From the NCBI GenBank assembly GCA_029851245.1, contig CP099826.1, positions 57,688 to 89,687 on the forward strand: a stretch of DNA of 32,000 nt. The letters run 5' to 3'. The DNA comes from Candidatus Saccharimonadota bacterium. Its GTDB lineage: Bacteria; Bacteroidota; Bacteroidia; Flavobacteriales; Blattabacteriaceae. The translations under genes were made by a program, and so were the position numbers. Numbering within the stretch: position 1 is the stretch's first letter; each line of letters begins with the position of its first letter. Under the pieces are notes generated by a model. That model worked only from the letters and a program-made list of their open reading frames with translations, had not been told where the DNA came from and made no database searches. Positions 18,707 to 18,925 of the stretch are shown in pieces.

Positions 18707-18925
18707 ATGCCAAACGGAAGAAAAAAAAAAAAAAAAAAAAAAAAAAAAAAAAAAAAAAAAAAAAAAAAAAAAAAAAAAAAAAAAAAAAAAAAAAAAAAAA
18801 AAAAAAAAAAAAAAAAAAAAAAAAAAAAAAAAAAAAAATATCTAATCATAAAAGGAAAAAAAGAAATAGAAAAAATAGACATAAAAAAAAAAATAGAAAA
18901 TAAATATATATTATTTATTAAATGA
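18707..18925 (+). CDS. ORF through the poly(A) tract (MPNGR-K39-YLIIKGKKEIEKIDIKKKIENKYILFIK); probably not a genuine protein gene
   Basis: It has an ATG at 18707 and is in frame through A118. Its TGA overlaps the rng ATG (ATGA at 18922-18925). No homology is recognisable. Confidence 0.15.
   Translation: MPNGRKKKKKKKKKKKKKKKKKKKKKKKKKKKKKKKKKKKKKKKYLIIKGKKEIEKIDIKKKIENKYILFIK
18721..18838 (+). repeat. uninterrupted 118-nt poly(A)/poly(T) homopolymer
   Basis: Counted directly. G at 18720 is followed by A at every position from 18721 to 18838, then T at 18839. Confidence 0.99.

Follow-up and report, generated by a model that had tools for sequence, protein, structure and literature searches.

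The poly(A) tract upstream of the RNase E/G gene (rng) of Candidatus Shikimatogenerans bostrichidophilus belongs to the coding sequence of a ribosomal protein, predicted to be bS22. Its length of 118 nt (A118) in the sequence that we analysed is probably an assembly artefact, and the true feature is very likely a slippage-prone run of 20 adenines (A20) within the bS22 coding sequence.

Organism and genomic context

The window, i.e. the whole stretch of 32,000 nt of record CP099826.1 that was analysed, has a GC content of about 12%. It comes from Ca. Shikimatogenerans bostrichidophilus, a Flavobacteriales endosymbiont of the beetle Rhyzopertha dominica with a genome of about 173 kb. Kiefer et al. 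2023 (PMC10284843) described it as the bacteriome symbiont of this beetle, the lesser grain borer. The Rng protein encoded in the window is the same protein as WGH25994.1 (Candidatus Shikimatogenerans bostrichidophilus) and is 100% identical to BDT61608.1 of AP026967.1 (Flavobacteriales endosymbiont of Rhyzopertha dominica; 173,251 bp). The Der protein of the window equals WGH25986.1 and is not equal to the Der of AP026967.1. A literature search for AP026967 returned no match.

The genes upstream of the tract are nusA (15736-16698) and infB (16688-18430, + strand), the latter encoding IF-2 (580 aa) with the GTP_EFTU, IF-2 and IF2_N domains. Downstream lie rng (18922-20391, + strand; RNase E/G family, 489 aa; PF10150, E 4e-72), tRNA-Leu (20411-20503) and mnmE (20590-22002). 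These domain matches agree with the names that a preliminary description of this DNA had given to infB and rng. A 55-aa ORF between infB and the tract (18505-18672, + strand) is annotated as hypothetical (BDT61609.1 / WGH25992.1). It sits where the sister symbionts have the HU gene (hup), found at that place in sister L091 (PF00216, 3.5e-22). We considered the ORF as a remnant of HU; the position fits, but it has no detectable similarity to HU (E 6.2).

The poly(A) run in the window

Positions 18721 to 18838 of the + strand consist of A only (118 nt), exactly as first described. The second-longest homopolymers of the window reach 15 nt (A at 19171-19185; T at 168-182) and the next 14 nt, which bears out the earlier estimate of about 14-15 nt; A118 aside, the run-length distribution shows a smooth decay. 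The number of A-runs of at least 118 nt expected in the window from its own base or dinucleotide composition is ~1e-35, and chance is thus excluded. For A-runs of at least 20 nt, about 0.004 are expected given the window composition.

The frame opening at ATG 18707 runs through the tract as a 72-aa ORF (18707-18925, + strand) that reads MPNGR, 39 Lys and the 28-aa tail YLIIKGKKEIEKIDIKKKIENKYILFIK*, and its TGA overlaps the rng ATG at 18922; past the tract, another frame encodes the basic peptide ISNHKRKKRNRKNRHKKKNRK*. Both frames had been reported before and are present in the window as reported. The exact look-up of the 72-aa poly-K product found no gene on record, and that of an antisense 71-aa poly-F ORF found no match.

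The tract lies inside a predicted bS22 gene

The tract had been placed in the spacer between infB and rng; we found it inside a conserved small gene. When the tract is taken as A20, ATG 18707 reads MPNGR-KKKKKK-ISNHKRKKRNRKNRHKKKNRK*, a 32-aa product with 21 K or R residues and 2 H. In the window, codons 1-5 (ATG CCA AAC GGA AGA = MPNGR) occupy 18707-18721 (+ strand), the last A of AGA being the first A of the tract, while the 21 C-terminal codons and the stop (ATA TCT AAT CAT ... AAA TAA) occupy 18838-18903 (+ strand) and are out of frame with the 5' part. The A20 tract spans codons 5-12, with six lysines (K6) between AGA (Arg) and ATA (Ile).

We compared this A20 ORF with PDB sequences and obtained matches to 8FMW_V (E 2.8e-6), 7JIL_5 (2.9e-5) and 9I5V_10 (6.8e-5), all bS22 chains, to which residues 1-28/29 align without gaps from residue 1. 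Because the A20 ORF matches bS22, the start of the "leader ORF" and the "second basic peptide" of the preliminary description are two halves of one gene; the peptide corresponds to the C-terminal two thirds of bS22. The 30-aa protein Fjoh_1533, located between h44 and h45 in the 30S subunit of F. johnsoniae, was named bS22 by Jha et al. (PMC7797042; structure 7JIL) and has a pI of 12.7. A scan of three of the 30-32-aa sequences against Pfam and NCBIfam gave no match at E<=1; short low-complexity proteins are poorly served by these collections, so that the positive evidence is that of the PDB sequence search.

The same gene was found at the same place in related genomes. In the sister genomes CP099825.1, CP099827.1 and CP099823.1, a short ORF just 5' of rng reads MPNGRKRKRKKIATHKRKKRSRKNRHKKKK, or has KRKKKK at residues 6-11. 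This orthologue (MPNGRKRKRKKIATHKRKKRSRKNRHKKKK) matched bS22 over its whole length in F. johnsoniae 7JIL chain 5 (E 2.3e-8), 9I5V chain 10 (4.8e-8) and Borrelia 8FMW chain V (2.8e-7), and in the three sister Shikimatogenerans the gene lies 23-88 nt upstream of rng. We then considered 80 loci of free-living Flavobacteriales, retrieved with Rng as query and counted among the matches listed: in 78 an orthologue of 29-31 aa precedes rng on the same strand, at 86-244 nt (median 119), and the remaining two have less than 180 nt of upstream sequence. The orthologous ORFs open with MPNGR or MPSGK in the sisters and in the 78 listed free-living loci. Similarity, length, basic charge and synteny all place the gene in the bS22 family, and its product is predicted to be a ribosomal protein. 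The annotation of AP026967.1 leaves the site empty, while the gene caller of the Logan contigs recovered the gene as a 32-aa product.

The reading frame depends on the length of the tract. An intact bS22 frame requires 3n+2 bases, and 118 mod 3 is 1; with A118 the N- and C-terminal halves are in different frames and the product is the 72-aa out-of-frame read-through, an ORF that exists only with the 118-nt tract. A20, as in AP026967.1, SRR25753869 and SRR18330941, keeps the frame intact and ends it at a TAA (18901-18903 of the window) 18 nt before rng. With A19, which shares the frame of A118, the out-of-frame product has 39 aa and was called as a gene in ERR3173699; A21 truncates bS22 to 13 aa. 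The ATGA overlap with rng occurs only in the A19 or A118 frame.

Tract length in other assemblies of the same organism

The locus was fetched by exact-protein look-ups from AP026967.1 and from the Logan assemblies of five unrelated sequencing runs. The tract was A20 in AP026967.1, SRR25753869 and SRR18330941, A19 in ERR3173699, A21 in SRR34373173, and at least A21 in ERR3173492, where the contig begins at A21. Thus, the 118-nt length was repeated in 0 other assemblies of the organism, and consensus lengths differed by about one base between samples (19-21). The preliminary description had proposed a comparison of the infB-rng interval among relatives; that comparison gave A19-21 in the same organism and A12-15 in the sisters. 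The flanks were at least 99.8% identical to the window in all six assemblies, with 0-1 mismatches per 2-6 kb in five of them (0 over 5.7 kb in SRR25753869) and 3 mismatches in 1.7 kb in SRR34373173. The A19 (ERR3173699) and A21 (SRR34373173) consensus alleles have intact flanks, but a shift of one base at A20 could be noise from sequencing or assembly. The JGI metagenome contigs that were scanned contained no match to the locus, the organism being absent from that collection.

Compared with AP026967.1 along all 32 kb, the window shows 11 isolated SNPs, a polymorphic tandem array and the additional 98 nt at the tract. The array (30-nt unit, 10.7-11.3 kb) shows a block of substitutions and indels that amounts to +84 nt. 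All other homopolymers, up to 15 nt, have equal length in both sequences. Several SNP alleles are private to the window (27601, 29487, 29621 and 30872 among them).

Logan assembles its contigs from exact words of short length, reportedly with k=31. A Logan contig that reads G-A19-21-T needs reads carrying that string, which an A118 template could not yield.

Source of the 118-nt length

The reading that we consider quite probable as a full explanation is that of an A20 tract in bS22 to which ~98 extra A's were added by an assembly or contig-joining error at this homopolymer. Two observations speak for it: A118 is unseen in the six other assemblies, one of which has identical flanks, and A118 disrupts a conserved ribosomal-protein gene. 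We infer the artefact from these other assemblies. Among the alternatives of the preliminary description, the one that took the length for an artefact or the tract for hypervariable is favoured by the lengths of A19-21 in the six assemblies.

The RDOM genome of Kiefer et al., which is CP099826, was obtained from short Illumina reads with SPAdes followed by re-assembly in Geneious, and the Nanopore reads in that study were only for the hosts D. porcellus and L. brunneus (PMC10284843). With a short-read assembly as source, a 118-nt homopolymer could not be sized from such reads. A sister record of the same study, CP099825.1, reads GAT A26 T A13 TATTTAAAA N A71 TATATTTAAAATC inside infB, which is split there into ORFs of 109 aa and 477 aa; the right flank is partly duplicated on both sides of the N, and the site homologous to A71 is A23 in CP099823.1. 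This junction looks like the signature of two contig ends badly joined at a poly(A). As the window is clean at its other homopolymers, the +98 error would be a single local event.

Eight GenBank records from the study of Kiefer et al., those that were compared, exceed the lengths given in its Supplement Table 2 by exactly 100 bp (for RDOM = CP099826, 172,971 bp in the paper vs 173,071 bp in the record). Taking away 100 bp would turn 118 into A18 here and 121 into a 21-nt tract in CP099825.1. We examined the idea that a 100-N gap had been stored as A (18 A + 100 N) and rejected it: N's are kept in the fetched loci, including the single N beside A71, and the 100 bases on each side of the N of CP099825.1 are real coding sequence.

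A possible real or heterogeneous expansion of the tract

A strain-specific or heteroplasmic expansion that is real, both versions taken jointly, is unlikely. In the first version, A20 would have expanded by replication slippage to ~118 nt in the source beetle culture and become fixed or dominant in the polyploid symbiont population, with bS22 inactivated or expressed only through transcriptional slippage; we regard this as improbable. The private SNPs of the window indicate a distinct strain or culture, which could in principle carry a private expansion, and tract length already varies among samples (19, 20, 21). Mismatch repair is presumably missing from the symbiont genome, and its absence would make true instability of homopolymers more likely. 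The window assembly is also accurate at other homopolymers, and A71 at the ~A23 site of the sister record might point to instability of runs longer than ~20 nt in this clade. However, that precedent lies beside an N and a duplicated flank in the essential infB and looks like a mis-join, and if the source is a short-read assembly, 118 is not a measured value. Six other assemblies have A19-21, including SRR25753869 with its identical flanks. A118 would moreover be out of frame for a ribosomal protein that is kept in 78/80 of the listed loci and in 3/3 sisters, and, as is generally known, ~39 consecutive AAA codons would stall ribosomes or make them slide.

In the second version, which is less probable still, the symbiont population within the host would be mostly A20 but include some far longer alleles, and contig ends would have been extended through these rare long variants during assembly. 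The break of the ERR3173492 contig exactly at A21 fits a graph branch from mixed lengths, and the contig ends at the CP099825.1 junction disagree (40 nt vs at least 71 nt). The coverage of RDOM is listed as "1.751", which we read as 1,751x, and at ~1,751x rare variants could be well sampled. Yet nothing observed points directly to alleles longer than A21, and PCR or sequencing stutter on A20 explains the one-base differences with no need for long alleles.

If a length of ~118 nt were real, a homopolymer in a conserved ribosomal-protein gene would have grown beyond 100 nt in a genome of 173 kb, and would be tolerated since bS22 is dispensable or since massive transcriptional slippage gives some in-frame product. 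A-runs above ~20 nt would then cross an instability threshold, with A71 in infB of CP099825.1 as the second case.

The proposed role of the tract as a leader of rng

Nothing supports a role of the tract as a leader or regulator of rng. The preliminary description had offered a slippage-dependent, frame-agnostic leader peptide starting at 18707, whose termination at ATGA couples translation into rng. The A19/A118 frame does end at the TGA that overlaps the rng ATG, and A19 is the consensus in one sample (ERR3173699). However, the overlap is limited to that frame; the homology-supported frame is that of A20, with its stop 18 nt before rng, and the distance from the bS22 stop to rng is 23-244 nt, with no overlap, in the sisters and the listed free-living relatives. 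The 28-aa tail YLIIKGKKEIEKIDIKKKIENKYILFIK has no counterpart elsewhere. These results do not support the coupled leader as proposed, and we give it very little credence.

We hold even less likely its other proposal, a genomically encoded poly(A) leader or punctuation that makes rng sensitive to RNase E/G or exonucleases: the tract runs in the sense direction 83 nt before rng, and the conserved bS22-rng adjacency makes co-transcription plausible, but the tract is coding sequence, measures ~20 nt in the other assemblies, and the gene pair is kept without a long run in the sisters (A12-15) and in free-living relatives (at most A8 among the matches listed). This comparison contradicts the poly(A) leader. 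A search with Rfam models, including those of the rne leader, found nothing at the gathering threshold across the window, nor at E<=1 in 18300-19200.

Origin and predicted behaviour of the A20 tract

In the preferred reading, an A20 tract in bS22, K6 fills the place between MPNGR and I(A/S)(T/N)H, where the sisters likewise carry exactly six residues (KRKRKK or KRKKKK). The longest A-run within bS22 is 4-8 nt in free-living relatives (among the matches listed), 12-15 nt in the sisters, where it is interrupted by G, and 20 nt here. The run grows with AT-richness, and A20 is thus where the replacement of AGA (Arg) by AAA (Lys) under AT mutational bias has ended. The ancestral K-R-K-R-(H/S/K)-K codons have all become AAA in the ~12% GC symbiont, and six AAA codons together with the flanking AGA and ATA codons form the in-frame A20 homopolymer.

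As the longest homopolymer of the region, A20 is the hardest place to replicate, transcribe, sequence and assemble. This difficulty may account for the wobble of consensus length (19-21) between data sets. Ribosomes slide on consecutive AAA codons. In a transcribed and translated gene, A20 would be subject to polymerase slippage and ribosome sliding, and would probably yield bS22 products of which some are in frame and others are not; this effect, known for long coding poly(A) runs of endosymbionts, is the only likely consequence of the tract. If bS22 is made from such a mixed mRNA pool, as is probable, DNA alleles of +/-1 base may be tolerated.

For annotation, a bS22 gene is to be added between infB and rng, where it is uncalled in AP026967.1 and frameshifted into the 72-aa poly-lysine ORF in the window. 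Records of this clade appear to hold inflated poly(A) runs that break essential genes, which calls for caution when pseudogenes or ribosomal proteins are counted. The A20 tract itself is an unusually long coding homopolymer in a translation gene, and a handy case in which to study how polymerases slip and ribosomes slide in an endosymbiont of the Bacteroidota.

Comparison with known systems

The predicted protein resembles the bS22 of Bacteroidota (Fjoh_1533, 7JIL chain 5; 9I5V, an entry also annotated as "AURKAIP1/COX24 domain-containing protein") and that of Borrelia (8FMW chain V) in being extremely basic, at ~30 aa, and in carrying the signature MP(N/S)G(R/K)K...(T/N)HKRKKR.R.NRHKK over its full length. 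Its position directly upstream of rng is that of 78/80 listed loci of free-living Flavobacteriales. Unlike in the known proteins, residues 6-11 are all Lys and all encoded by AAA, which makes A20, whereas free-living A-runs are <=8 nt (among the matches listed); the C-terminus is longer by NRK, and the copy in the window is put out of frame by A118.

The 5'-UTR leader of rne in Enterobacteria (Rfam rne5) is likewise a sense-strand sequence upstream of a gene of the RNase E/G family. The region here differs from it in being coding and in having no structure or sequence match, and the enzyme is of the short Rng type (489 aa), not an E. coli-type Rne.

With homopolymer mis-assembly or mis-joining in AT-rich short-read assemblies, A118 shares a length seen in one assembly, a position at the longest homopolymer of the region and the breaking of a conserved gene, and the sister record provides A71, an N and a partly duplicated flank. 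It differs from such cases in that the window is clean at homopolymers up to 15 nt. The 118-nt length is most likely not a real feature.

Tamas et al. reportedly described in 2008 how transcription slips at the poly(A) tracts in Buchnera and Blochmannia. The preliminary description had pointed to this literature, and it is indeed the relevant one where the real A20 tract is concerned. The phenomenon is summarised by Williams & Wernegreen 2010 (PMC3017870), where the slippage-rescued coding tracts of endosymbionts measure about 9-12 nt. Like those of Buchnera and Blochmannia, the tract described here is a long A-run that arises from AT bias in an otherwise conserved gene, and it exceeds 9-10 nt in length; its consensus length differs by one base between samples (A19, A20, A21), which could also be noise, and the same logic predicts a mixed mRNA pool. 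Unlike them, it reaches 20 nt, is found in a Bacteroidota symbiont and lies in a ribosomal protein gene; slippage is predicted here by analogy, and since the reference A20 is in frame, rescue is not required for that allele. The A20 tract is a further example of this known endosymbiont phenomenon, together with a small correction to the annotation.

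Poly(A) sites in infB of sister records

The infB gene of the sister symbiont record CP099825.1 (S. bostrichidophilus TIMP) is broken into two ORFs of 109 and 477 aa by a poly(A)/N sequence, which lies inside the gene at positions 1038-1160 of the locus taken from this record (L090) and reads A26 T A13 TATTTAAAA N A71 TATATTTAAAATC. At this junction part of the right flank occurs twice, once on each side of the N, and the homologous site in CP099823.1 (631-652 of its locus, L093) is a run of A23. It appears that, in this public genome labelled "complete", two contigs were wrongly joined at a poly(A) tract.

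In CP099823.1 (LCAV) infB (L093 404-2385) was also found in two ORFs, of 462 and 184 aa, broken at an A18 run (approximately 1791-1808). Either this split is a further homopolymer error, or the frameshift is genuine; in the latter case, slippage would be needed for the expression of an essential gene.

Annotation and variation next to the tract

The bS22 gene that holds the poly(A) tract (window 18707-18903) is not called in AP026967.1 at the corresponding positions (L001 2884-2982), so ribosomal-protein counts for these reduced genomes may leave out bS22. The same-symbiont locus assembled from run SRR34373173 (L087) carried three substitutions within 1.7 kb, at the equivalents of window 17150, 18687 and 18720. 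The last of these is a G to T change of the base directly 5' of the tract (GGAAT-A21), which would alter Arg5 of bS22. Either the strain in SRR34373173 has diverged further, or its assembly contains more noise.

Upstream, a 55-aa hypothetical ORF (BDT61609.1 / WGH25992.1; window 18505-18672) occupies the same slot as the genes for HU-family DNA-binding proteins in sister symbionts (L091 2575-2862, PF00216, 3.5e-22; L093 2458-2811). Sequence comparison detected no HU similarity in its product; the ORF could be what is left of a degenerated hup gene, or it could have no relation to hup.

Other features of the window

Within an ORF of 328 aa (10335-11321) lies a 30-nt-period tandem array (window 10704-11335; about 21 copies of AATAAAGAAAATAAAAAAAATAATAAAGTA). 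The product called for this ORF in AP026967.1 has 300 aa and lacks Pfam domains. At the array the window carries 84 additional nt and many substitutions relative to AP026967.1; thus, either the array varies among strains or one of the assemblies has collapsed it.

Both tmRNA (8068-8437, minus strand; tag GNNNYKLAA) and RNase P RNA (14846-15183, minus strand) are kept in the 173-kb genome. GC content jumps to 32% in the final kilobase of the window, because the 16S rRNA gene begins at 31058.

Record sizes

Records CP099823, CP099825, CP099826, CP099827, CP099829, CP099830, CP100318 and CP100319 were each exactly 100 bp above the genome size that Kiefer et al. 2023 (PMC10284843) give in their Supplement Table 2, e.g. 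173,071 vs 172,971 bp and 193,492 vs 193,392 bp. Blattabacterium Bge, with a record of 636,850 bp, served as the control for this comparison. Its published size agrees with that of its record, so the 100-bp excess is not a tool offset.
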